A stretch of DNA of 58,859 bases, counting the filler, from Jimgerdemannia flammicorona (Eukaryota): assembly GCA_003990765.1 (NCBI GenBank). It is 3 parts of 3 records of this genome, joined end to end, with 100 filler letters (N's around TTAATTAATTAA, not from the genome) between each part and the next. Parts side by side here need not be neighbours in the genome. Positions count along the whole stretch, not along the records: positions 39,311 to 58,859 come from RBNJ01001914.1; 2 more parts are not named here. The stretch is one strand, 5' to 3'. A program made the translations under genes and the position numbers. Positions 5,771-58,859 of this stretch are shown one piece after another. The notes under the pieces are model-generated. The model did no database searches. It saw nothing but the letters and a program-made list of their open reading frames with translations, and was not told where the DNA came from. Position 1 is the first letter of the stretch, and each line of letters starts with the position of its first letter.

Positions 5771-5981
5771 GATATTGTGATGTATGCAATTGATAATGGA
5801 GTACCAGTGACTGCTAAGATCAGACGACATAATGGCATGACAATCGAATAGACAGCCTGACCCATTAGGTGATCACTCCAAAAGGAGCAATGATAATCCG
5901 AGCCAAAAGGAAGACTACGTTATTTAAAGAACCATACTCCACCTCAGGAATCAGCACCAAAGAACAAGTATCCACCACACA

Positions 5982-6899
5982 ATGCCTCCAATCCGCTACC
6001 CCAACCACCACTCTTCCCCCTTACCTGGCCCAAAGACTCTAATCCTTGAAGCAATCAAGAAGGCTATTTGGCACCCAGACACCTCTGAACATCTGAACTT
6101 CTACACCAAGGATCTTGGACACTTTATCAATTACCAGTACATAATGACCCAATAGCTCAAAGATACCACTGAATGAATGACCCTCTGGTATGATTACGAA
6201 ATTGGACACCACCTTCATAATGAAACCCAAGAAGGTGACCAGAAAGACCTCATTGCCGAAATGTTAACTACCAGCTGGCTAATCAAGAGAGCCCTCCATG
6301 TCTACCAAATCTTCCACCATATTCCCTGGGCTATAGCATACTTACAAGGAGTAACTGCTGGAAGTCTTGCCTGTCTCTCAACTGAAGATGCAGACTGGAT
6401 AGAATCAGAAGTAGCCAACTCTATTGGTAGTAACCAGGTCACTGTAGGAAGCCAACAAACTGAGCCCACTCAACCAGGCTTTCACACCACTCCACTCCGA
6501 GACAACCACTAAGATCACCTAATGAGTCTCATGGAAATCTTCGAAGGACCACCCATTACTATTACAAAACCTGTTGGAGCAACCCCAACTACTCACCACC
6601 CTGTCAGCTACAATTCGCACCTCATCGTTTGGGAACTAAATCAAGAAGTCCCAGAAGTCCCTACCAATACAGAAACTGGAGGATCTGAGGAAGAAGAAGA
6701 GGAGGAACAAAGAATCTACCAATCCTCTGTCCGCCTTCAAGCAGTCTAAGAGTTGGAGAATTTCATCGAAGATGATTGGCCACAATTCTACCCCCTCACC
6801 TCCTGGTTGGCACTCCCACCCTTTGAAGAACAGAATGAAGAAGTCACAATCCAGCAAGATGATTGGTTCACTGACAAAGGGTACTTTACCATTCAGTGA
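5982..6899 (+). pseudogene. disrupted copy of the LTR-encoded ORF (5' LTR)
   Basis: Same sequence as 16047-16973 with a deletion near 6005 and TAG/TGA/TAA stops. Confidence 0.8.
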
Positions 6900-7146
6900 T
6901 CTAACGTCCATTTCCTCAGTCCAGTTAGCCAATGTTCGTCAGCAAGTCAGTAACATCCGTTTCCAGCGATATCACCCCCAACAACCAAATCCAGTACTGG
7001 CACTCGTCTTATCTCAATTCAGTGATCCAATGTCCGTTTCCTTAGTCCGGTTAGCCAACATTTGTCAGTAAGTCAGTAACATCCGTTTTCAGTGATACCA
7101 CCCACAACATCCATATCCAGTACTAGTACTCATCTTATCCCAATTC
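6892..7146 (+). repeat. 2 x 126-bp direct repeat in the LTR U3 region (also ~16966-17220), CCAAT-containing, enhancer-like
   Basis: TTCAGTGATC...TTAGCCAA...GTCAGTAACATCCGTTT...CTTATC repeated at 6892 and 7018. Confidence 0.8.
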
Positions 7147-7217
7147 GGCGCAAACAACTATCACACCCATATTTAGCAATTAAACCACCACAATATAGTA
7201 TACCTTAGCCCCCCCCC

Positions 7218-7272
7218 CATAGCTAGCAAAATTGTATAAATAACCCTATATCTTAAAGTGAATAAACCTCAG
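7218..7272 (+). promoter_or_regulatory. LTR core: TATA box (TATAAATA) followed by AATAAA; second copy at 17293-17347
   Basis: CATAGCTAGCAAAATTGTATAAATAACCCTATATCTTAAAGTGAATAAACCTCAG; near-identical module in the LTRs of elements B and C. Confidence 0.7.
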
Positions 7273-7973
7273 TCAGTTTGTGTTTAAAAGTAAAAAAAGG
7301 AATTACAGAGAAACCTCACTGCCTCCAAGAGACCAGATAAATTCTGAGAACAAGATAACTAGAGCAATGATCGCTCAAGGTTTGAGTTAAAGAATTTTCT
7401 CTTGCCACGGAAAAACGTTCAAGATTCGCTGCTAAGGAAAGCCACATGAAAAGCCGTTCAGTTCAGTTTAAAGACCTGCCGCTAAGGAAAGTTATATGAA
7501 AAAACCGTTCAGTTCAGTTTAAAGACCCGCTGCTAAAGGAAAGCTGCACAAAAACTGCCAACTGCTGCCAAGATCCTGCCAACCCAACCATCGTGCATTC
7601 GGAACCAACCACCATTCGAGGTTCAAGACTGCACATTTGAGACCTGCCATTCAAGTGTTAAGACCCCAGCCAAGGAACCCAAGGATACTAGAACAAGACC
7701 GTCAGTGAACAACCAACTGCCAGAACCCACCCTCAAGTTAAGAACAAATGTTCAACTGAACTATTGACCTGAACGATTCCCTACTGCACCATGAACTGTG
7801 TATGTTCAAGAAGTAATTCGCCCCGAGCCTCCATCATATAAATCGAATGCACTGATCATGTGACTATCTACCCGTAATCGTCGTGAATGCACTCATATCC
7901 ATCACACACTTCACCAAGTGGCACATTGAGCCATGCTTGAAGCAACTAGAGATACAAACCGGATGCTACATTT

Positions 7974-14000: not shown

Positions 14001-14309
14001 AACTATGGAGCCACTAAGTTGGAATGCCTAGCAGTAGTTTGGGCTGTGGACCACTTCTGACACTATCTCTTGGGAAAGAGATTTGCTCTCATCACTGACC
14101 ATTAAGCTCTACAATGGTTGTTCAACAAGCCGGAGCCCTCAGGAATCTTCACTAGATGGATCATGTCTCTGCAAGAATATCAGTTCACTATTGTCTACAA
14201 GAAAGGTGCTAAGAATTCCAATGTCGATACCCTGTCAAGAATCCCGTGAAACCAACAAGAAGGGAAGGAACCCCCACAAGAGAAGGCTGCTTCCCGCTCA
14301 CCCAAATGA
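8037..14309 (+). pseudogene. single-frame gag-protease-dUTPase-RT-RNase H polyprotein of element A (many in-frame stops)
   Basis: ORF fragments 10221, 10662, 11766, 12543, 13155 and 13359 share one frame. Capsid-like KFHGADNEDIKEFF at 8865; knuckle (C>Y)FNCGNQGHIQRNC ~9796; protease ILV(D>N)TGA; RT MPFGLCNAPASFQ..YIDD; RNase H LTTDASALGLG..KLECLAVVWAV. The start at 8037 is inferred (ATA from ATG). Confidence 0.9.
11990..12405 (+). pseudogene. dut: dUTPase domain of element A
   Basis: Motifs GSVGY(N)L, SRSSLA, GGVI(N)QDYRG, AICQ and RGQGGFGST, in the polyprotein frame. Confidence 0.9.
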
Positions 14310-15515
14310 ACCAAGAATTGCACCTCGCCCTCACCTGGAGTCTGCACCATAGAAGCTTCAAGAAAGGAATCCAACCAGCTCACAAGTTATTTATCCAAAG
14401 GAATTTCAAGAAATTCCAAGAAGGTGATGGCAAACTTTGGAGAGTAGAAGGAGAGCAGTACACCCGAGTTCCAAGAGAGGAAGAAATATTGAAGATCCTG
14501 ACAACAAATCATGACCAAAATGCATACTGAGAAATTGGCACCACTATTGCAAGAATCAAGAAGCAATACTGGTGGCCCAAGATGAGAAAACAAATTTCAA
14601 TGCACATTCAACAATGTGATACCTGCCAAAGATACTGACAAAAGCCTACTGACAAAGTACCATTAATACCGATTGCAGCACCAGCTGGAGCCTTTCAAAG
14701 ACTGGGAATAGATATTATTGGACCCCTACCAGTAACCAGCCGAGGAAGATGCTACATCCTCACTATCGAAGACCACCTGACAAAATGGTCTGAAGCCTTT
14801 GCCATTGAGACTGCTGATGCCCAGATAATTATTGGGATCCTGTATAATGAAATTTTCAGCTACCATGGTGTGCCCAAGGAAATCATTACAGACCAAGGCT
14901 GAGAATTCATCAACCAAGCCATGAAGACCTTTGCGAGCAACTTCAAGATCAAGCTACGACTAATAACAGCCTACTACCCATAGGCAAATGGACTCACTGA
15001 ACGAATGAACCAGACCATCAAGCGAGGTCTCAGTAGAACTGGAGATCAACTAAACTGGGATATCTATCTACCGGCAATTCTGTTCAGCATCCATACCTCT
15101 AAGGCAACCACTACCCAACAGACCCCCTTCTATTTGGTGTATACAAGATCCTACTAAACCAGTCCAGCTAGATCTGTCAAAACGAGTCACAGAAGAGATC
15201 ACCCGGTTATACAACATATGCCAGCAAGCATGAGGATTTATCACCAAGGCACAAGAATGACAAAAGAGGTACTACAACTGCAAAGCCAACCTCAAACCCC
15301 TGCTCATTGGACAAAAGGTTCTGGTGTACCATACCATCATAGAAGGAAATTGGAGTGCCAAGCTTGAACCAAAATGGGAAGGCCCCTATCTCATACACCA
15401 AGTATTCTCATACCACACTTATCAACTCAAGACCTTGGATGGAGTTATACTCAAGACCAAGATACACCATAACCGCATAAGACTCTACTACTCAAGAGAA
15501 GCAAAACACATTTGA
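14306..15515 (+). pseudogene. integrase of element A (HHCC zinc domain, rve core, GPY/F), separate ORF with its own ATG
   Basis: MNQELHL...; YWWPKM..CDTCQ; GIDIIGPLP; IITDQG; NGLTERMN; KLEPKWEGPY. In the -1 frame relative to RT-RH; one decay frameshift near 15147. Confidence 0.9.
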
Positions 15516-15830
15516 ACAATCCTGTTCACTCTGTCTGTGTCATCTCCACCGGAGATATGACAGATGTTTCATTTGGAACTCAAGAAAGCCAACAACATTG
15601 GAACCAGACTCAAGCCCATCCACATGACAGACATTGTTACTAAGAAATTGCCTCAGATTACAAGAAATACTATTTCCGATAGGTTCGAACCCCCAGCCGC
15701 AACTATGGGAGCCCTCGCCCTAGACAAGGATGGCCAGTCCTCACAAATGCGCTGACATTCTGCTCATCCCTGGAGTAAAGACCACCCAACCCTGTGTAAC
15801 CCTCACCACCAAGGACAGCTCTAATTTTGC

Positions 15831-15840: not shown

Positions 15841-18042
15841 TGTGACGTATGCAATTGACAATGGAGTACCAGTGACTGCTAAGATCAGATGACATAATGG
15901 CATGACAGTCGAATAGACAGCCTGACCCATTAGGTGATCACCCCAAAAGGAGCAATGATAATCCAAGCCAAAAGGAAGACTATGTTATTTAAAGAACCAT
16001 ACTCCACCTCAGGAATCAGTACCAAAGAACAAGTACCCACCACACAATGCCTCCAATCCACCACCCCAACCAGATCTCCTACTGCTCTTCCCCCTTGCCT
16101 GGCCCAAAGACTTTAATCCTTGAAGCAATCAAGAAGGCTATTTGGCACCTAGACACCTCTGAACATCTGAACTTCTACACCGAGGATCTTGGACACTTCA
16201 TCAATTACTGGTACATAATGACCCAACAGCTCAAAGATACCACTGAACAAATGACCCTCTGGCATGATTACGAAATTGGACACCACCTTCATAATGAAAC
16301 CCAAGAAGGTGACCAGGAAGACCTCATTGCCGAAATTTTAACCACCAGCTGGCTAATCAAGAGAGCCCTCCATATCCACCAAATCTTCTGCCATATTCCC
16401 TGGGCTATAGCACACTTACAAGGAGTGACTGCTGGAAGTCTTGCCCATCTCTCAACTGAAGATGCAGACTGGATAGAATCAGAAGTAGCCGGCTCTATTG
16501 GTAGTAACTGGGTCTCTATAGGAAGCCAACAAACCAAGCCCACTCAACCAGGCTTTCACACCACTCCACTCCGAGACAACCACCAAGGTCACCTAATGAG
16601 TCTCATGGAAATCTTCAAAGGACTACCCATTACCATTACAACACCTGTTGGAGCAACCCCAACTACTCACCACCCTGTCAGCTACAATTCGCACCTCATC
16701 ATTTGGGAACCAAATCAAGAAGTTCCAGAAGTCCCTACCAATACAGAAACTGGAGGATCTGAGGAAGAAGAAGAGGAGGAACAAAGAATCTACCAATTCT
16801 CTGGCTGCCTTCAAGCAGTCCAAGGGTTGGAGAATGTCATCGAAGATGATTGGCCACAATTCTACCCCCTCATCTCCTGGCCGGTGCTCCCACCCTTTGA
16901 AGAACGAAATGAAGAAGTCACAACCCAGCAAGATGATTGGTTCACTGACAAAGGGTACTTTACCATTCAGTGATCCAATGTCTGTTTCCTCAGTCCGGTT
17001 AGCCAATGTTTATCAGCAAGTCAGTAATATCTGTTTCCAGTAATATCACCCCCAACAACCAAATCCAGCACTGGCACTCGCCTTATCTCAATTCAGTGAT
17101 CTAACGTCCGTTTCCTCAGTCTGGTTAGCCAATGTTTGTCAGCAAGTCAGTAACATCCATTTTCAGCAATACCACCCACAACATCCATATCCAGTACTAG
17201 CACTCATCTTATCCCAATTCGGTGCAAACAACTGTTGCACCCATATTCAGCAATTAAACCACCACAACATAGTATACCTTAGCCCCCCTCCCCATAGCTA
17301 GCAAAATTGTATAAATAACCCTATATCTTAGAGTGAATAAACCTCAGTCAGTTTGTATTTAAAAGTAAAAAAAGGGATTACAGAGAAACCTCACTGCCTC
17401 CAAGAGACTGGATAAATTCTGAGAACAAGATAACTAGAGCAACAATCACTCGAGGTTTGAGTTAAAGAATTTTCTCTTGCCATGGAAAAATGTTCAAGAT
17501 TTGCTGCTAAGGAAAGCCACATGAAAAGCCATTCAGTTTAGTTTAAAGACCTGTCGCTAAGGAAAGCTGTATGAAAAAACTGTTCAGTTCAGTTTAAAGA
17601 CCCGCCGCTAAAGGAAAGCTGCACAAAAACCGCCAACCACCACCGAGATCCTGCCAACCCAACTGTCATGCATTCGGAACCAACTGCCATTCGAGGTTCA
17701 AGACCGCACATTCGAGACCCACCATTCAAGTGTTAAGACCCCAGCCAAGGAACTCAAGAATACTAGAACAAGACCGCCAGTGAACAATTGACTGCCAGAA
17801 CCCACCCTCAAGTTAAGAACGAACATTCGACTGAACCGTTGATCCAAATAATTCCCTACTGCACCACGAACTGTATACATTCAAGAAGTAATTTGCCCTG
17901 AGCCTCCATCATATGAATCAAATGCACCAATCACATGACTATCTACCCGTAACCATCACGAATGCACTTATATCCATCGCATGCACCAAGTGGCACATTG
18001 AGCTGTGCTTGAAGCAACTAGAGATACAAACCAGATGCCATA
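15841..18042 (+). repeat. 3' LTR of element A (~2202 bp)
   Basis: Starts TGTGACG and ends GCCATA (CA>TA); followed by TSD ATAT. Confidence 0.95.
16047..16973 (+). CDS. 308-aa open ORF inside the 3' LTR; unknown accessory protein with an acidic, disordered C-terminal half
   Basis: Uninterrupted ORF; segment KRALHIHQIF..AIAHLQGVT matches ORF3 of element B (AKRIHKLF..ALAHL*GVT). Confidence 0.7.
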   Translation: MPPIHHPNQISYCSSPLPGPKTLILEAIKKAIWHLDTSEHLNFYTEDLGHFINYWYIMTQQLKDTTEQMTLWHDYEIGHHLHNETQEGDQEDLIAEILTTSWLIKRALHIHQIFCHIPWAIAHLQGVTAGSLAHLSTEDADWIESEVAGSIGSNWVSIGSQQTKPTQPGFHTTPLRDNHQGHLMSLMEIFKGLPITITTPVGATPTTHHPVSYNSHLIIWEPNQEVPEVPTNTETGGSEEEEEEEQRIYQFSGCLQAVQGLENVIEDDWPQFYPLISWPVLPPFEERNEEVTTQQDDWFTDKGYFTIQ

Positions 18043-18300
18043 ATATATATTTCCAGGATGAGTTATGTTTAATTCTAGGTCAGGTTAAAGATGGGTAATA
18101 TATCTTTCTGGGTCAGGTTAAAGATGGGTGATGTACAATTCTGGGTCAGGTTAAAGACAGGTGACATATAATTCTGGGTCAGATAAAAGATGAGTGACAT
18201 ATAATTCTGGGTTAGGTTAAAGACAGGTGATGTCTAATTCTGAGTTGGCTGTTTTATGAGTCAGGTTTCAGGTTAATCAGATCAGGTTTGCAGAGTACTA
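18043..18300 (-). repeat. right subterminal repeats and terminus of the hAT element
   Basis: AATTCTGGGTCAGGTTAAAGAYRGGTGACATAT units are the reverse complement of the 55-430 array. Confidence 0.85.
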
Positions 18301-43323: not shown

Positions 43324-43437
43324 CTTGTCTGGGTATTGGGGCTCAGTTTGTATGGTTGTTCGAGTAGTGGTGGTTGTTCATTGTTCAGCTTGAAAGTGAG
43401 AGATTCATCTTGAATCACCAGCCAATGGGCACCAAGT

Positions 43438-43913
43438 TGTAACATAGCAGATGCTTACTCTTGAAAGTACATCGGATTTCTGTATCTTGAAAACTTGACC
43501 ATTCTGACTCTCACAGAGTCTCTTGAAGTTGTAGGGGAGAGTGGGTGAGTTCAAAGTATATCTGCCTGTAGGCTTACTAGTTCCTTTGCTATCTCTTTGC
43601 TTTGAACTATTTCGATCTGAGGTTTATTCACTCGAAGATACTGGGTTATTTATACACATTTGCTAGCTATGAGAGGGTGGCTAAGTAATAAATGAGTCAT
43701 TTGGACTTTGTCGAAACATTTGGACAATGTCTAAATACTATACTAAATCAGGGTGTTCAATTTGGATAATGTCTAAAATTTAGACAATGTCTAAGAATTT
43801 AGACAATGTCGAAATTGAGGACTGCTAACTATAAGGCTATACTACTTTGGGACTGGGTGCGATCAAGTGTCTATTCCCTATTTCCTTCTTCCTAATTTGG
43901 CTATACTGTTATA
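43438..43913 (-). repeat. 5' LTR of element C (~476 bp)
   Basis: Termini and promoter-side half homologous to the element B LTRs (50302-50738, 56492-56886). Confidence 0.88.
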
Positions 43914-46900
43914 CTAGGAAGGTATTGGATTTTATAGAAAAAATTAGTGAGGAATTTTATCCAACTAGCTTACTTTTGAGAAAGAGTAGTCTGAGTCTTG
44001 ATATTGATCAATGATTTATAGACTATCAGTACAGTAAAGTATACTCTTTGAGATATGGATACTATTTGATCAAGGTGTCTATAATAACTAACATTTCTTT
44101 TCTATAGATCATATAGTTGATTTTAGTAGAATTGAACTTGTGAGAATAATAGGCCATAGGGTGTCCTTCTTATATAAATACTGCTCTAAGAGCTAGGTTA
44201 GAGATATTAGTGATAACTTTATATGATAAGGCAGGGTTTACTACTTGAAGTACTAGAGTAGTTATCAGGATATCTTTTAACCTATATTTTGTTCAGATTC
44301 CCATTTAATAAGGTTGTTGAAGAGTCTTTTACTTACTTTGTTATCTAAGGTTATTCTTTTTTTTTACTATACTTAGTCAGTTAGATAAGAGTATTAGCAA
44401 TCTTGGCAAATTTGTAATAAATCACTTATAATAGTTTGCTAATTCTAGGAAAGACTAGAGGTCTTTTAGCTTCTTGGATCTGGGTCATTTCTTAATTACA
44501 GAGATTTTGGTAGAGTTTACTTTGATTCTATTAAGAGTAATGATATATTCAAGAAATTAAATTTTCTTCAGAAAGAATTCATATTTACTAAGTTTTAGAA
44601 AGATTTGGATTTCTTAAAGCTTCAATAGTACTAGTTCAAGATATTTAAGATATTTCTCCAAAGTTTTGCTAAAGACTAGAATATCATTAATATAGATAAT
44701 AACAAATGTAGATATAAGTATAGAATAGTATTCATCAGAGTCTAGAAGGTTGTAGAAGCATTAGTCAAGTCAAAAGGCATAACTAGGAACTCAAAATGTC
44801 TATAACAAGTACAGAAGGCAGTTTTGTAGATGTCTTTTTCTTTTATAGCAATTTGCCAGTAGCTATTTTATAGATCAAAAGAGTTTATAAATTGTGGGTT
44901 GATAAGCCTATTGAATATTTTATTGATTCAGAGTAGTAGATAATAGTTCTTGATGATCTATTCATTGAAGTCTTGATAATTAATATATATTTATAGATCT
45001 TCTTCTTTTTGATAACAAAGAAAACTAGTATACTATATAGTGATATATATACTAGGTCTAATGAATCCTTATTCTAGAAGTTTATTGATTTCTTTCTTAA
45101 GTATATCAATTTCTCTAGGAGATATGTGGTAGATTGACTTGAAGACAGACTTGCCATCTGGGATGGTTTTGATTGCATACTCAACTGCTTGTTTAGATAG
45201 TAGACCTTTTGAAAGTTTTCTTGAAAATATATCTCAAAATTCCTGGAGTAAGGGTCTAATATAACTGTCAACTTTAGAAAAGTCTTCTTTGAGGTTCTCA
45301 GATTCCCCTTTGGATAGCCTTATAGAGATAACAAAGAGAGGACACTTCTTTGCTAATTTCTTAAGTTATAGTTTATTAATATAGGTGATCTTTAGGCCTA
45401 GATCACTGGAGCTAAGTGGGTCATTTTCTTCTTGTAGTTTGAAATTATAGTTCTTTCTTAATGATCAGAGAATGTTTAATCCAATTGATCATAGAGCTCT
45501 CTTGTTTTAACTATAGGGTCCCCAGGATTATCTCATTTTTAAAGAGTAATATATACTTAGTAGTTATCAATTCTAAAGAATAGATTGTAGACTTCTTTAC
45601 TAATGATATGTGAGGTTCTATCAGCTATGGCAACTGCTTGGGTTTATTGTACTGGAGAGGTCAGAACTTTAAGTTTATTAGCTGTTTTCTCATTAATGAA
45701 ATTGCCTGAGACACTACTATCTATTATAATTTTGATAAGACCCAATTAACAAAAGATTAAAGGATAAGTAGTTTGTCTGATCTAATAGTAATAATTTTGA
45801 TTACAAGAGGTTTCTTTCTGTTGGCTCTTCATTAGACTAACTAATTGATATAAGAGAAGCAATCATCAATTATTTAAAAGGAGTACATTTCAATACTATG
45901 GAGGTATCAGCCACTTAGTATAAATTCATCTTTGATTTTTCTGTAGAATTATTCCTCCTTATTTATACTAAGTTAAGCTGGGACCTTATTTGATGAGCAA
46001 AATCCTTTGGATACTCAAATAATAGGTAGTAGTTTGGAAACTTCCTTGACTGTCAAAGTTGATTCAATTTTTCAAATAGGATCTGGGCAATATAATAACT
46101 GATAGAGATTTTGAATAATGTCTAACTATAGTTTTGAATGAGGATAATGATTTCGCCTGTATAATCTTTATCAATGACTCTTCCTTCTACTGAGCATTCT
46201 TTTAATACAAGGCTACTGTGACAGCATATTTATCTTATATATTCTTTAGGAATTTGAATACTGATTTCTGTAGAGACTTACTTGACTTCTCAGTTAGAAA
46301 TAGTAACTTCTTTGGCTGCATATAGATCATATCTAGCTGCTTTTCAACTTTCTCTAGTTAGGGCCATAGTTGTTATCCTTAACTTGACAAAGTCTAGTAT
46401 CTTGATAGTCAGATTATTGAGATAATACATAGTAGTAACAGTAGCTCATATTGTAGTATGGGTTTTTTGATAGGGCAGGCACTGACTATATATCCTGTCA
46501 TTTGGCAATAGAAGTATACTCTGCTTCTTTGGAGTTCATTTCTTTCTCCTTCAGTGAGTTTCTTAAAGATATTTGGCTGGATGGATTCAGAATTCTGAGA
46601 TGTTCAAGAGTTAGATATAAAGGGAGCTCAGGAGACTTCATACTTAGATACTTCTTTTTTGGTCCAAGATTTTTCCTTATTATTGAATTGGTTTTGAGGC
46701 AGAATTAGTCCATCTGTTAGGATTTACTTGACCAAAGTCTTGATTGTGATCAGGTACCATTATTAGTAATCATAACCAACTGGGCATTCTTGTTCATAGA
46801 TCTTTCTTATGAGTCATTCTGGTAGTATATTAAATAAATTGTCTACTCTTATACTAATTCATGCTTTATTATTGGCAATATATTCTAGGTCAATAGTGTT

Positions 46901-50235: not shown

Positions 50236-50301
50236 CTTATATCATGAAGTAATCAGTTCTTTATTTGAAAGATACATCACTTGAAATTCACACATAAATA
50301 T

Positions 50302-50738
50302 TGTAACATAGCGGATGCTAAGGTGGGCAAGTACATCAGATTTCTTTATCTTGAATTCTTGTCTTCTTGACTCCTAGAGTCAGTAGTTCCTTGAGGCCAA
50401 ATGTGTTCTAAGAGGTAATCCCGAAAGTCCCTTTATTGGTATACTTGTTCTTCTTCTAACACTGTTGATCTGAGGTTTATTCACTCGAAGATACTGGGTT
50501 ATTTATACAAGTTTGCTAGCTATGAGATGGCTACTGAGTTACGTGGCTAAGTTATGAGTCATTTAGACAATGTCAAAATGCTATACTAAATCAGGGTGTT
50601 CGATTTGGACAATGTCTAGAAATTTAGACAATATCAAAATCAGCGACTGCTAACTATAAAACTATACTACTTTGGGAATGGGTGCGATCAAGTATCTATT
50701 CCCTATTTCCATCTTCCTAATTCGGCTATACTATCACA
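50302..50738 (-). repeat. 3' LTR of element B (437 bp)
   Basis: TG..CA termini; matches 56492-56886; preceded on the minus strand by a PPT at ~50740-50748. Confidence 0.95.
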
Positions 50739-50787
50739 ACTTCCTCCTGAATAGATGGTCTCGTCTCTGAGACATCTATTCAAACTC

Positions 50788-51237
50788 CTATGCTTCGACT
50801 GTCTGTATGGTTTTGTACTGTTCAATCTGTTGCATGACTGTCTCCCAATGATGTCTCCTTATTTTATCGAAGTCGGTAGGGGTTACTCCTCACAGGTGGG
50901 CTAATGCTGATTTATCATCTTGAAATAGCTTGTGGATCCTTTTGGCAATAGTGATCTGTGAGTAGGAGAGTTGGCACTCTGCGATCCAGTCTTCTTTGGT
51001 CTTTGCTGAATCCTGGTTGAGCACCCATCTAAGCTTGAAGTACTCTTGGAACTCTGCCCGATATTGGTAGGCACTAAAATGTGAGATCTGAGAGAGATGA
51101 GTCTGCACAATACTCTGAATATCCTTATAGTATGCCTCTATGGTCAGAGGCTTGGTGGTGTGCCATTGTCTTTCAATAGCCCTTTGTGTAGTACTAGTGA
51201 TCTTGAGTGCCACTGCAGTGCTCCAGTTATTGGCCAT
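50788..51237 (-). pseudogene. ORF3 accessory gene of element B (env position), one internal TGA (probably CGA)
   Basis: MANNWSTAVALK...TIAKRIHKLFQDDKSALAHL*GVTPTDFDKIRRHHWETVMQQIE; homologous to the LTR ORF of element A. Confidence 0.7.
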
Positions 51238-52420
51238 GGTACTTCTTGAGTCAGTTTTGGTAAATGGTAGTGGGGATTATTGTGCCTGAGGGCTTTCGTA
51301 GTTGGAAAGTGGTCCCTTTTATATCTTGCACCAGGTAAGGTCCTTCCCATTTAGGCTCCAGTTTTCGCGACCAAGAAGCTTCTACTATATTCCAATATAC
51401 CAGAACTTCATCTCCTATCTTGATAATCTCCAGGGGCTTGTGGGTTTTTTCTGCATTGCTCCATTATAGTGCCTGTGCCTTGATTATATAATCTTCTGCC
51501 TTTTTCCTAATTTGATGCAATCTCTGTATCTCCGTATCCACATGCTTCCAGATTGTATCATTACCTGCTGACAAACTTCCACCAGAACCTTCTTTACTGA
51601 ATAGCATTTCTCGTGGTGTAAAATGGGTACTTTGTGATCATATATCCAATAGAGTAGATAATGCTATTGGTAGATAGTGGTCCCAGTTTCCATATTCATC
51701 ACAGATCTTGGCAATGATGTTCTTGAGGGTCTTATTGATTCTTTCTGCTTGCCTGTTTCCTTGTGGGTGATAGGCTGTGGTTTTGATGTACTGGATCTTG
51801 TACTTCTTGTAAAGAACCTCATGGAACTGGTTGACGAATTCTGTTCCTCTGTCTGTAGTAACTTGCTTTGGGGTCTTGAATCGGCAGATGATTTCTCTAT
51901 GAAAGAAATCGGCAATTGACTGTGCATTGGCTTCCTTGAGGGGTCTGGCCTCTACCTATTTTGTAAATAGATCTACTATTACAATGACATATCGGTTGCC
52001 AGTCAATGTCAGGGATAGAGGGCCAATTACATCCATTGTGATGTGGGCAAATGGTATTGGTTTGATGTCTGCTGATCCAGGGGTTTGATCCTGTTGGTCT
52101 TGTTTCTGTTTCTGGCATTTGTCACAGGTTCTGACAAATTGTCTGATATCTTCTTCCATTCCAGCCCACCACATGGTTCTTCTCACTTTGTTATATATAT
52201 TTGTTCCTCCTACATGACCTTGTTCATGTACCTCTTTTATCACTTGGTTCTTCCAGTGCTCAGGGATGACTAATTGTTGTCCTTTCTTGAGTATTTCTCT
52301 ATCAGTTTTGAATTGTTTCCATGTCCGATTAATAATTGTTTTTGTCCATTCTTCTAGATGCAGGGGCATCTTTTGCTGCCCCAGGTAGCTGATGATTCCA
52401 TAGTACAGCTCTTTATTCAT
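51227..52420 (-). pseudogene. integrase of element B, separate ORF with its own ATG
   Basis: MNKELYYGIISYL..HEQGHVG..WWAGM..CDKCQ; TMDVIGPL; KLEPKWEGPY; +1 frame relative to RNase H. Confidence 0.9.
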
Positions 52421-55400
52421 GGTGATTTTGTAGGGGTGGGGTCCTTCGGGGTGTCTGTGAGAGGGTGTCAGCATTGGCATTGATTTTTCCAGGGCGGTGG
52501 ATGATTGTGGCATCATATGCTTGCAGCTTCATGATCCATCGGGCATAGATTCCTTTGGGCTCACTGGTAGTGAGCAACCAAGTGAGTGCTGAGTAGTCTG
52601 TCTGAATGGTGAAGTGCCTTTCAGTCAGATAGTAGTGAAACTTCTCTACAGCCCAGATGACTGTAAGGCATTCCAGCTTATAAGACTCATAGGACTGCTC
52701 TGCCCCACAAGTACCTTGGCTGAGATAGGCTACCACGTATTCAATGCCATTCTTCTTTTGTGTAAAGACAGCTCCAAGTCCCATTGCACTGACATCCATC
52801 TGCAGAATAAACTCTTGAGTCCAGTCAGGTCTTCTCAGGATTGGAGCCTGGGTCAATCTGGTCTTAAGCTCATCAAAGGCTAGTTGCTGCTGCTGAGTCT
52901 ACTGGAACTGACCTCTTTTCTGAACAGATCATAGATAGGACTGGCAATGTGGGAGAACCTTCTGATAAATCTTCTGTAGTAGGATGCAAGTCCCATGAAG
53001 GCTCGGGCTTCAGTGGTACTGGTAGGTACTGGGTATGCTGCTACTGCCTTGATCATTGTAGGGTCTGTATGTATTCCTTCATGGTTGATGATGTGTCCAA
53101 GGTATGCAATTTCTTCTTCTCCAAACTTGCATTTCTTAGGCTTGATATAGAGGCCATGTTTGTGAAGCCTTCTGAGGATTTCCTCAATGTAGCCCAAGTG
53201 TTCTTTGGCTGTTTGGCTGAAGATGATCACATAATCTACATATACCATCATCCATTTCTCCATAACATCTCTGAAGATACTGTTCATCATTCGCTGGAAG
53301 CTTGCTGGTACATTGCACATTCCAAAGGGCATGCGGAGATAGACATAGGTTCTATCGGGGGTAATGAAGGCTGATCTTTTGCTGGCTTCAGGTGTAAGGC
53401 CGATTTGGTAGAATCCTGAGAACAGATCCAGGGTGGTGTAGAATCGTGATTCATTCCCCAGTATGATAAGAATATCGCCAATGTTCGGCAATGGTTGTCT
53501 GTCCTTTTCTGTGACCTCGTTGAGTCTTCTATAGTCTGTACAGAGTCTTGGTGTAAATTCTCCTGGTTGGCTTCCCTTCTTTGATGCAAGGATGATGGGA
53601 GAGGACCAAGGGCTGCTGGCTTCTTCAATGATGCCAGATTCCTCCATCTCCTTGATTTCTGTCTTGAGCCATTCTCTGTATGCCAGTGGAATGGGGCAGG
53701 CCTTCTGATAGATTGGCTTTGCATCTCCAGTATTGATGTCATGACAATACAAGGGTTTCTTGGTCTTGATGTCCTTGAAATCCGTGGCCAGTATATCCTT
53801 GAATGTATGCAAGAGGCTCTGTAATTCTTCCCTGAGGGGGTAGTTTCTTCCGATTGTGTAGGTGTGTTTGTCTTGGCTTTCCTCCTTCTTGTGCTCCAAT
53901 TCTGTAATTTTAGTTACTGTGAGGACTCCTCTTCCTGTAGAGCCGAATCCAGCTCTTCCTCATTGAGTTTGCCTGATGTTTGCGACCTCCTTGATTCTTG
54001 GATTAAGGACAGGTAGGATGAGCATTTGCGCCAGCCGATCCTTCTTTCTTACTTCGAATGGGATTGTTGGGTTGTGGTTCCTGGTGAGGAGAAGGATTTC
54101 TCCAGTATAATCTGAATCGATGACTCCTCCTTCTATAGATATTTTGCTCTTTGCCAGGCTGCTCCTTGTCTTGAGGATTCCAACATGGTTTGGCAGGATG
54201 GCTACTTCAATTCCTGTTCCTAGAATGGTGGTGGTCTGCAGTTCAAGTATTGTGTGTGTTGTAGTGGATAGGTCCATTTCTGCTGCATTCTCCGATTTGT
54301 ATTGTGGCATGACTGCATTAGGGTAGATTCTTCATATCTTGACTGTGATGTCTTCTTCATCATCGCTGTCATCCAATAGTTATGGTGGTCCATCTTCTGG
54401 TTCCTCCTGGTTCTTCTTTGGCTTGTTGGTGATCTTCTTCACCTCAATGATACAGGAGTAGCAGCAATCCAAGTGCTGGGCACAGTACATTCTTTCACCA
54501 TAGGGGCACCTTCCTAGTGGGGCATATCCATCTGCGATTCTTGTATACCATTCTTCCTCTGTCAATTGCTTGTCTTTTCCTTTCTTTATAGTAAACATAT
54601 AGGCTTCTTCTTCTTGGTCTTCCTCCATCTTGGGGCGGACTCCTTTGTGGACATTGATGGGAATTCTGATCTTCTTTCCCTGGTAAATGATCTGCATCTT
54701 CTGTGCACTGAGGTCAATCATTGCCTTGGCTTTATGAAGCCATTGATTGCCGATGAGGATATCATAGTTGGTTGCATTGGTGACGATGACATCCACAGGG
54801 ATAGTGGCCTCTCTGAACTTGATTGGTATATCTCAGATTTTTCCCAAGGGTGTTGCTTGTGTCCCATCAGCTGTGACAAACACCAATTTGGTGGCTTCTT
54901 CTATCTCCCAACCTAGGCGGTCTACTGCTTTCTTGGTGATGAGACATCCTCCTGCTCCTGTATCAATGATGGCTTCAAAGACCCAGTCCTTGATCTGGCA
55001 GGTAGCATAGGCTGATGTTTTCCGGTTATCTTCACTCTCTTCATCTGAATCTTCTTGAGCATTGTTGGCTTCAATTATTCTGTAATCTTGGTCTTTGCCG
55101 ATGTCTGAGATTCCTGTCCTCATTTGTTGTCTGAATGTTAGGATTTCAGCCAGCTGGCCAAAGGTTGCATTGACCTTTTGGTCCTTGAGGTCCTTGAAGA
55201 TGTCATACTTGAAGGTCTTGCTCTTGTGCAGTTTCTGCTCCTTCTTTCCTTTGCTTGATGGGGTAGTATTTCGAATAATATCTTCTACTGCTTGCTCCAG
55301 TTCAGCATCTTGTTCCAGCTCCATATCTTGATCAGCTTTGCTCTGTTGGTTCTCTTTTTCGATGACTGTTTCTGGTTGTCTTATTTGTGTCTGGGCCTTC

Positions 55401-56392
55401 TTAGGAGGTCTCCCTGGAGATCTTTTGTAGGGACTGGATCAGACATCCTTCTTGCCTGAGGTGGCAGGATAAGCTTCCCATTCCTCCCTCTCTTCCTCAG
55501 ATTCTCTAATCTCCTTGAAGGTGATAGTGTTTGCCTGCTCATGGTTTCTGATTGCATTGCTTGGATTGGCCTTTTGCTTGGTTTCTGTCATGCATTTGGA
55601 GGCATAGTGGCCTTCTTCTCTGTAATTGTAGCATGTTATTGATCATCTTGCATTTGTAGTGGCAAACTTCTGTACTGGCTTCTTCTTGAATTCCTTGACT
55701 ACATCACTGAGGTGTGCTATCATTTCCACGAACTGCTTGGCCAGTTCCTTCATTGGGTCGACCCTTCTCTGGTCTTGTGGTTGCAGTTGTGTATTCTGGT
55801 TGACTATGGTAGCCAGGATTGTATTGGTGACTCTTGGTGCTTGTTTGATTTTTACTCCGGTTATCCTTTCCATTGTATGGCCTTGAGGGTGTCTGGCAGT
55901 CCAGTATCTTTGGGCATAGGTAACCTTCTGTCCCAGGTCCAGTGGTGTTGGGGTAGATCGAATGGCTAAAGCAATTTCTTGGTGAATGCCTTTCATAAAG
56001 ATATTCTCAGCCACTTGGTCTTGAACTGCATCGGGGTAGTCAGCAAGGACTATTTGATGTTGGATTCTTGTATAGAATGTATTTGGGTCTTCAGACATTC
56101 CTTGGCAGATAGTATTCAGTTGATCTTTGAGTGCCTGTTTGATTTCGTCTGTATAGTAGGTTGCTTGGAGCCAGGTCTTGAAGGCCAGGATTCTTGCTGG
56201 ATCATCAGCTCCTTGTACATTAGCTGTAGTAAATACGGTTCTTGCTGGGCCTCGGAGGCTCACAGGGAGTAGGGCTACTTGTTGTGCTGCCGATAAGGTT
56301 CTTACAGCAGCATACTGCTCGAAATCATCAATGAAGGTGATGATTGATTCATCCGAAGTATATCCATGGAATATGGGTGGTCTCATATCCAT
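52413..56392 (-). pseudogene. gag-protease-Cys motif-dUTPase-RT-RNase H polyprotein of element B
   Basis: Fragments 56392, 55324, 54796, 54310 and 53899 are in one frame. AIIDTGAG; dUTPase 53930-54340 (TRSSLA, GGVIDSDYTGEI, GFGSTG); RT MPFGMCN..YVD(Y); RNase H FILQMDVS..KLECLTVIWAV; one decay frameshift near 52910. Confidence 0.93.
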
Positions 56393-56472
56393 TCTGTCTG
56401 ATTGTGTTGTGTGGGTTCTCGTTGTGGTTGTTCATTGTTCAGCTTGAAAGTGAGGGATTCATCTTGAATCAC

Positions 56473-56488
56473 CAGCCAATGGACACCA
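56473..56488 (-). other. candidate primer-binding site of element B (same position in C at ~43419-43434)
   Basis: TGGTG(T/C)CCATTGGCTG 3 nt inside the 5' LTR; cognate tRNA not identified. Confidence 0.5.
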
Positions 56489-56491
56489 AGT

Positions 56492-56886
56492 TGTAATGTA
56501 GCAGATGCTAAGGTGGGCAAGTACGTCAGATTTCTTTATCTTGAATTCTTGTCTTCTTGACTCCCAGAGTCAGTAGTTCCTTGAGGTCAAATGTGTTTTA
56601 AGAGATAATCCTGAAAGTCCCTTTATTGGTATACTTGTTCATTTTCTAACACTTTTGATCTGAGGTTTATTCACTCAAAGATACTGGGTTATTTATACAA
56701 GTTTGCTAGCTATGAGATAGCTACTGAGTTATGTGGCTAAGTTATGAGTCATTTAGACAATTTCTAGAAATTTAGACAATGTCAAAATTGGCAACTACTA
56801 ACTATAAAACTATACTACTTTGGGAATGGGTGTGATCAAATGTCTATTCCCTATTTCCTTCTTTCTAATTTGGCTATACCATCACA
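56492..56886 (-). repeat. 5' LTR of element B (395 bp; 42 bp shorter than the 3' LTR)
   Basis: TG..CA termini; the deletion falls between TT(A/G)GACAAT direct repeats. Confidence 0.95.
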
Positions 56887-57173
56887 ATATATAGAAATTT
56901 CCACCTAACTGAAATTCATACATATATAACTGATATATATTATCAAAATTCTCATACATATATATAACCCTGGTCCTGATCTTGGTCTCCACTATGTCTG
57001 GCTATAGTAGTAGCTATCTAGTAAGTATTAATATATAATATCTTTTTTAGCAGAAGATCAGAGATCAATAGATTGAGTTATTGATAGATTTTGAGAAGAG
57101 TATGAAATATTTTCCTATATCTTCTATAATTGTTATAACTTATATAAGATTGATCTTTAGTTTTTAGATAGAT

Positions 57174-57672
57174 AGTAGCTTGGGTAGTAGCTTGGGCTTA
57201 GGCAGCAGCTTGGGCTTGGACAGTAGCTTGGGCTTAAACAGTGGCTTAGGCTTGGACAGCAGCTTGGACTTAGGTTGCAGCTTGGGCTTGGGTAGCTGCT
57301 TGGGCTTGAGTAGTAACTTGGGTTTCAGCAGTAACTTGGGCTTGAGTGGCAGCTTGGGATTAGGCAGTGGCTTGGGCTTAGGTAGCAGCTTAGACTTAGA
57401 TAGTGATGAGGGCTTGGATAGTAGCTTGGGCTAGAGCAGTGGCTTGGGTTTGGGTAGTGGCTTGGGTGATAGCTTTGGCTTGAGTGATAGCTTGGGCTTA
57501 GGCAGTAGCTTGGACTTAGATGGTAGCTTGGGTAGTAGTAGTAGCTTGGGCTTTGGTGGTGGCTTGGGCTTAAGCAACAGCTTGAGCTTAGATAGTGGCT
57601 TTGGCTTGGGTGGGGGCTTGGGCTAGGATGGTGGTGGCTTAGACTTGGGTGGTAGCTTGGGCTTAGGTAGTA
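57174..57672 (-). repeat. 18-bp minisatellite (GGCAGCGGCTTGGGCTTG-like), probably a decayed Pro-rich coding tract
   Basis: More than 20 imperfect copies built from 6-bp GGCTTG/GGCAGC subunits. Confidence 0.8.
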
Positions 57673-58859
57673 TCTTCAGAGACCTCAGGGGTCTCAGAAG
57701 TAAAGGCTTCAGAGGTAGTCTAAGAGGTAGCTTTAGGTTCAATCTTTGAGATAAATTGCTTAATTACTTCTTCAATCTACTTTTTCTTCTTCTTATATTT
57801 ATTATCAGTAGTATTTCTAAATAAATCAATAGAATCAAATTGAGTTCAAATTGAATTGAGATCCATTTCATATTGTTTTAATTGAATTGAGGTCTAATTT
57901 GATTCAAAATTGAAAATCAAACTTTGAAATATAATAACTTAATAAAAACATGTCCAAATTTAATAAATATTAGCTTATTGAATTTGTCTTGATACAGCAA
58001 ATCCAATACATCAAAGGTCATTAAATTTGGATATGTTTTCATCAAGTTATTGAATTTCAAAAAATTTAGATTTGAAATTTAAAATTGGTGATTTGATATA
58101 TTAATTATTTATTTGTTATTCAAATACATAGCAATACAATACATTCAGCACTTATGACACTTGCCTGATACATTCCACTCACCTGATATTAAGTATCTAG
58201 CTGTATACCTGGCTATAGTAATAGTCAATTAATAGGAATTATTATAAGAACATTTTCTTAAACATTGATCAGAAGTCAATCAGTTCAACTTCTGACAAAT
58301 GTTAGTGAGGATACTACAAGTCTTCCTATATCATCTGTAATTATTACAACTGGTCTGAGGATAGCCTCTTGGCTTTAGGGTTACTGGGATGACTGGAGCT
58401 AGAGTGGCTAGAACAACTAGGACTGGGGGGGCTAGAGTGACAACCAGGGCAAGGATGATGACCAGGGCTAGTGGAGTGACTGGGGTAGCTAGAAGGGTCA
58501 GGGCAATAGCTGAGATAAATTGCTCAATCATTTATTAAATATTTTCTTTTTCTTTTTATATTTATCTTGAGTAGTATCAATTCTATCTATCACTACTCAA
58601 ATGGATATCTTGCTAATTGCATGGTTCATATCTTCAAAATAATTTGATTGATAGTTGAGATAAGTTTGAATATTCATTTTATTTTATTTTTATTAGAATT
58701 TATTTTTTTAATAAACATGATAGCTTTTTTTTTTATTTTTTTTTATTTTTTTTTATAGTCACTTGGACTCCATCCTTTATTAACTAATACACCAGTCTAG
58801 CTTCTATATAATACACAGTACCCCACCCCTACCCAATTCCCCTAGGGGCACCTCTCCCC

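Follow-up and report, generated by a model that had tools for sequence, protein, structure and literature searches.

A Conserved Accessory Gene between Integrase and the 3′ LTR of a Ty3/gypsy Retrotransposon of Jimgerdemannia flammicorona, with a Possible Role in Regulating Its Own LTR

Introduction

Long terminal repeat (LTR) retrotransposons are known to carry extra open reading frames (ORFs) in the env position, most of them with no assigned role. What such a frame encodes is the question raised by ORF3 of element B, a dUTPase-bearing Ty3/gypsy LTR retrotransposon in a 58,859-nt stretch of Jimgerdemannia flammicorona DNA (assembly GCA_003990765.1; hereafter the window), which joins three parts of that genome with filler. 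Its three LTR elements are related to one another: A runs along the plus strand and B along the minus strand, and element C is truncated. A sequence-only reading of the window had described ORF3 as a frame of ∼150 amino acids, coupled to the integrase gene upstream, that is not an Env, and had proposed a conserved accessory protein such as a transactivator, reinitiation factor, or anti-silencing factor. We find that ORF3 is a genuine accessory gene encoding a soluble protein of no catalogued family, which lies between integrase and the polypurine tract (PPT) in B and within U3 in A. That this protein acts in trans, binding DNA and regulating its own LTR, is the reading we favor, with a probability of roughly one in three.

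Results and Discussion

The ATG proposed for ORF3 (51237-51235) holds, but the frame that follows it in the window is not open: what had been taken as its end is a premature stop at codon 150. An earlier premature stop, at codon 116, falls on the ‘x’ preceding G-V-T in the motif A-x-R-I-H-x-L-F-x5-A-L-A-H-L-x-G-V-T, which is present in B as the sequence-only reading had it. Among 160 ungapped copies, position 116 is a sense codon in 116 and position 150 in 143, and a stop follows codon 153 in 154; this length and stop are constant across five subfamilies and metagenome relatives. We conclude that the window's ORF3 is a dead copy of a genuine, formerly functional accessory gene. A stem-loop spans the family stop, directly 5′ of the PPT (Table 1); one of its stem pairs is A-T in 63, G-C in 62, and mixed in 16 of 141 matched copies (164 examined, 23 unmatched), switching across subfamilies.

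Because premature stops occur in 143 of the 160 copies as well as in the window (only 17 frames are fully open), the frame could be taken for a relic without function, or for something that constraints on integrase and the LTR produce as a side effect. Against this, integrase and Pol decay likewise, length and stop are constant as described above, and selection is specific to the frame in both families. Using transversions only, which sidesteps C-to-T decay, pN/pS for B ORF3 in 82 distinct copies was 0.24 in frame as compared to 1.47 and 1.49 when the frame was shifted. The five subfamilies compared with one another gave 0.21; for the homologous ORF of A pN/pS was 0.21 in frame as compared to 1.11 and 3.7 (30 copies). 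These selection tests refute the remnant explanation, to which we give almost no credence. ORF3 is selected about as strongly as integrase. Both genes are abundant in the J. flammicorona genome: a first look gave 1825 candidates for ORF3 of B and 5067 for its A counterpart; all scored candidates (150 of 150 in each case) matched.

The homologue in element A encodes 308 amino acids, of which approximately the first 158 are homologous to ORF3, with an acidic tail after them. Within the window the two are related at a tblastn E of 0.002, and the family profiles align with an hhalign probability of 84 (E 7.4e-6, 82 columns). Profile similarity and purifying selection in both families thus uphold the proposal of a conserved, non-Env accessory protein. 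The shared motif is present in both elements but is looser in A, where it reads A-L-H-I-H-Q-I-F-x5-A-I-A-H-L-Q-G-V-T.

Outside this genome we found nine homologous proteins with 64-82% identity, and a profile search of 1.84 billion representatives gave six matches, of which two (P0024 and P0025) are distant, true-looking homologues and one is an insect repeat artefact. One metagenome contig carries ORF3 in the equivalent position. ORF3 is exchanged independently of integrase: between B and its metagenome relative L061 the integrase is 90% identical while ORF3 shows 156 differences in 459 bases. The L061 contig opens with an ORF3 tail and PPT (1-290; see also 5795-6479), and the U3 array types of its two LTRs differ; it is a tandem element, a recombinant element, or a chimeric assembly.

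The predicted protein is soluble and all-helical (153 residues; pLDDT 78). In agreement with the sequence-only reading, it is not an Env: its highest 19-residue Kyte-Doolittle mean is 0.07, it has no hydrophobic or transmembrane stretch, and it has no Pfam match (no dedicated signal-peptide program was used). Searches for sequence matches in Pfam (15 family members, E ≤ 0.01), PHROG, and PDB returned none, nor did a viral fold library at E ≤ 0.001. A DUF1016_N (YhcG N-terminal) profile aligned over 55 columns with a probability of 2.0 and E of 0.024, against only four sequences, and PF17761 had no match in the J. flammicorona genome. The predicted fold has no clear match; weak ones recur to ParB/KorB DNA-binding domains, over ∼93 residues of helical core.

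If the protein regulates its own LTR, it would be a helix-turn-helix (HTH)-like factor that binds DNA sequence-specifically and acts in trans within the nucleus; its target would be a palindrome array in U3, and residues ∼119-129 would set its specificity. It could then transactivate the element or counter its silencing, in a genome where such elements decay by C-to-T and G-to-A changes, with ORF3 and U3 traveling as one exchangeable cassette. Between the PPT and the TATA block, LTRs of the B family carry repeated 18-19-bp palindromes centered on CA-N(1-3)-TG, at 2.4 per U3 in 67 LTRs as compared to 0.30 after shuffling. Their core varies with the subfamily (GACA-T-TGTC in that of the window, GCA-N3-TGC, ACA-N2-TGT, and others), as do ORF3 residues 117-131, which include the protein's most variable site. 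Array type agreed with ORF3 117-131 type in 152 of 152 copies typed at both, with patterns drawn up after the sequences had been viewed and with 9 of the 161 distinct copies dropped (4 untyped at ORF3, 5 without a readable array). Such agreement is what would be expected of a protein-operator pair. Together with the weak ParB-like fold matches, the arrays provide circumstantial support for a transactivator or anti-silencing role. The palindrome centers, CA-NN-TG, also resemble the junction of two LTR ends, and integrase is therefore another candidate binder of the arrays.

Several observations weigh against a regulator of this kind. Plain linkage suffices for the agreement between array and ORF3: the three recombinants between the two most closely related subfamilies have their crossovers upstream of codon 121, with a probability of ∼0.19 that none of three would fall between codon 128 and the array. 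Two subfamilies that differ at residues 117-131 have one core in common, and the A LTR contains no such palindrome array. ORF3 is not a basic protein (neutral pI). Sequence support for ParB is nil, with an hhalign probability of 0.3, a score inside the range of shuffles, and no match to HTH_ParB; the single KorB match has an E of 0.52. The most specific version, in which an HTH-like regulator, possibly a remote ParB relative, recognizes an operator-like array in its own U3 and the two switch together as lock and key, activating or unsilencing the element, we regard as speculative and on balance doubtful.

Several of these points would suit an accessory protein that counters silencing, or otherwise helps the element, without binding U3 DNA (e.g., an RNA-silencing suppressor or chromatin-factor decoy), the arrays being linked sites for host transcription factors. 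Linkage, the missing array in A, and the neutral pI all fit, and the selection and position data fit equally. Host pressure is evident as well: CpG observed/expected is 0.23 in B and 0.26 in A, a strong depletion, and the two LTRs of the decayed B copy differ at 28 of 395 aligned bases, with transitions accounting for 24 of the 28. However, ORF3 resembles no catalogued family, and the array core shifts between close subfamilies yet stays palindromic, which is unexpected for a fixed host factor. We consider this explanation tenable but rather unlikely.

The junction between integrase and ORF3 bears on how the protein may be made. As the sequence-only reading had stated, B integrase ends in CAT GGC CAA TAA (stop 51229-51227) and the ORF3 ATG lies 8 nt upstream of that stop; it is in the +1 frame. 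The overlap holds across the B family, but its spacing is not fixed at 8 nt: among the 140 of 164 distinct copies in which the junction is intact (ATG in 130, ATA in 10), the integrase stop follows the ATG by 5 nt in 23, 8 nt in 70, 17 nt in 45, and 41 nt in 2. The junction of Pol and integrase is built alike, with an ATG at 52420-52418 and the Pol stop at 52415-52413, and the description of three abutting cistrons is right for B; in A, however, the integrase frame ends at ∼15518 and the homologous ORF lies ∼530 nt beyond the stop, within the LTR, which makes this arrangement a trait of the B family only. B (52413-52420), A (∼14307-14310), and L061 all have integrase as a separate ORF, whose ATG falls on the Pol stop or next to it.

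The His codon that bears the ORF3 ATG is CAT in 69 of 77 copies, TAT in 8, and never CAC, and the absence of CAC gives modest support for a start codon in use. ORF3 in family B would, as a weaker inference, be translated from its own ATG, either from a subgenomic RNA or by ribosomes that reinitiate once integrase has been translated. Such an overlap fits termination-reinitiation (PMC5972666). A correctly placed motif resembling a termination upstream ribosome-binding site (TURBS) was not seen in the 121 nt inspected, where the sole TGGGA lies ∼110 nt upstream and is dictated by the Trp codon of KWEGPY. We therefore regard a subgenomic or spliced mRNA as being just as likely as reinitiation.

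Two other roles turn on the junctions. ORF3 could work together with integrase or the particle: translated separately (or through a +1 frameshift), it would be a module for targeting or packaging that stands in for a chromodomain, needed because integrase is encoded by an ORF of its own. ORF3 begins exactly where the conserved part of integrase ends, in the +1 frame, in all typed B-family copies, and integrase is its own ORF in both B and L061. A 4-bp target duplication, ATAT, is apparently common to A (5772-5775 and ∼18043-18046) and B (56887-56890 and 50298-50301), hinting at a target preference. The placement of the A homologue in the LTR, well past integrase, argues against a partnership, as does the divergence and exchange of ORF3 independently of integrase, and the codon usage at the ATG favors its own initiation over fusion. 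Such a partnership thus appears unlikely.

ORF3 could alternatively be a translational transactivator like caulimovirus P6/TAV that enables ribosomes on a polycistronic RNA to reinitiate at the integrase ORF, since the element is tricistronic with stop and start overlapping at both junctions and reinitiation after long ORFs requires either RNA tethering or a TAV-like protein (PMC5972666). The Pfam search of 15 members left the TAV family unmatched along with all others, so membership by sequence is rejected, and the most variable ORF3 residues follow the U3 type and not the junctions. Caulimovirus P6/TAV, a translational transactivator, has ∼520 residues, and ORF3 with 153 is far below this size. 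We find this role improbable, and a reinitiation-factor role gains no support.

Among described systems, ORF3 is a member of the established class of additional ORFs (aORFs, or ORF3s) that are sense-oriented and lie between pol and the 3′ LTR of LTR retrotransposons, as presented in PMC7264820: position and orientation agree, it occurs in most copies, and it is conserved like the other element proteins. It differs from that class in lacking a transmembrane stretch and any match to an esterase or exonuclease, in belonging to a family not in Pfam, in overlapping a separate integrase, and in having a homologue within U3 in a sister family. Three bdelloid lineages with ORF3s also have dUTPase (PMC5408684). 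The fungal Ty3/gypsy elements with dUTPase (PosPlaTy3-5, Phanerochaete, Tuber) share with B the placement of dUTPase between protease and reverse transcriptase (RT), and a figure legend names an ‘additional ORF with unknown function’ (PMC2864245); the present element differs in having integrase as a separate ORF.

A functional analogy for the regulator we favor is offered by the VANC anti-silencing proteins of Arabidopsis VANDAL elements, for which binding and demethylation are shown (PMC5735166), whereas for ORF3 such activity is a guess; no sequence link was found. In both, an element-encoded accessory gene accompanies motif arrays that are repeated in tandem in the element's own non-coding DNA and differ by subfamily, as we found in the B family, and the genome methylates or mutates the element; in contrast, VANDAL is a DNA transposon and its motifs are direct and not palindromic. 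ParB, Spo0J, Noc, and KorB bind palindromes as dimers, with a specificity residue in the helix after the HTH in ParB/Noc (PMC7383237), and the weak alignments of the modeled ORF3 core to the ParB/KorB central domain suggest a possible resemblance. We do not assign ORF3 to Env, ParB, VANC, or TAV. The literature listings searched showed no publication on this ORF3 family, on which supplementary material may still bear.

Complex retroviruses carry accessory genes at their 3′ ends, such as tas/bel of foamy virus and, within U3, sag of MMTV and nef of HIV. The location between pol/env and the LTR, or within U3, is alike; the present element differs in having no env, a Ty3-type RT, and no match in the viral fold library.

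Other Features of the Window

The remaining coordinates are collected in Table 1. Element B is a dUTPase-bearing Ty3/gypsy LTR retrotransposon by its TG...CA LTRs, target duplication, primer-binding site (PBS), PPT, Gag-protease-RT-RNase H-integrase order, and Ty3-like RT; among solved structures, Ty3 is nearest to the RT of L061 (E 1.7e-90). The Gag-to-RNase H frame is almost uninterrupted in L061, and the window copy of B integrase has several premature stops. Reading of B integrase by eye beyond its GPY/F-like end showed no chromodomain.

A 55-nt TATA/AATAAA block recurs at 17293-17347, 7218-7272, 50470-50524, 56660-56714, and 43617-43690, and is 91-93% identical between A and B LTRs although RT protein identity is only ∼41-46%. 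The C and B LTRs (43430-43914 and 50302-50490) have U3 and this block in common but differ in the R/U5 part; C ends at ∼39778, ahead of integrase, and has no ORF3 in the window. After the A integrase stop the frame runs on for ∼85 codons (15519-15770) with few fixed stops in full-length 3′ copies, possibly a read-through extension or a further ORF. Tandem repeats comprise a 126-bp repeat that lies past the ORF and ahead of the TATA block of the A LTR (6891-7150 and 16965-17224), a 33-bp repeat flanking A on both sides in inverted orientation (18-357 and 18043-18254), and an 18-bp repeat region upstream of B (57143-57676).

Table 1. Coordinates of features of elements A and B, counted along the window.
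Feature	Position	Strand	Remarks
ORF3 of B, 153-codon family frame plus stop	50776..51237	-	premature stops at codons 116 (50892-50890) and 150 (50790-50788); family stop 50778-50776
Stem-loop spanning ORF3 family stop	50748..50781	-	directly 5′ of PPT
U3 array of ∼19-bp palindromes	50561..50641	-	core GACA-T-TGTC in window subfamily
Integrase stop/ORF3 start overlap	51227..51237	-	ATG, +1 frame, within His codon of integrase KKYH
B integrase, separate ORF with own ATG	51227..52420	-	H2C2 zinc finger PF17921, E 3.7e-18
Gag-protease-dUTPase-RT-RNase H frame of B	52413..56392	-	broken in window copy
5′ LTR of B	56492..56886	-	
PBS-like TGG... stretch	56472..56488	-	after B 5′ LTR
PPT of B	50740..50748	-	
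3′ LTR of B (TG...CA)	50302..50738	-	then 4-bp target duplication ATAT
TATA-like/AATAAA block in B 3′ LTR	50470..50524	-	93% match to LTR of element A
Homologous ORF of A, 308 aa	16047..16973	+	wholly within 3′ LTR, upstream of TATA block
Broken second copy in A 5′ LTR	5982..6890	+	end approximate
Element A LTRs	5776-7966 and 15841-18038	+	

Implications

ORF3 represents a new family of soluble proteins. It has many natural variants, and each of them goes with a defined type of U3 motif, which reduces the question of whether an element has its own transactivator or anti-silencer to a simple binding experiment. Should the regulator not be borne out, ORF3 would be one more uncharacterized accessory ORF; if it is, an LTR retrotransposon would, like complex retroviruses and VANDAL elements, make a sequence-specific transactivator or anti-silencer of its own.
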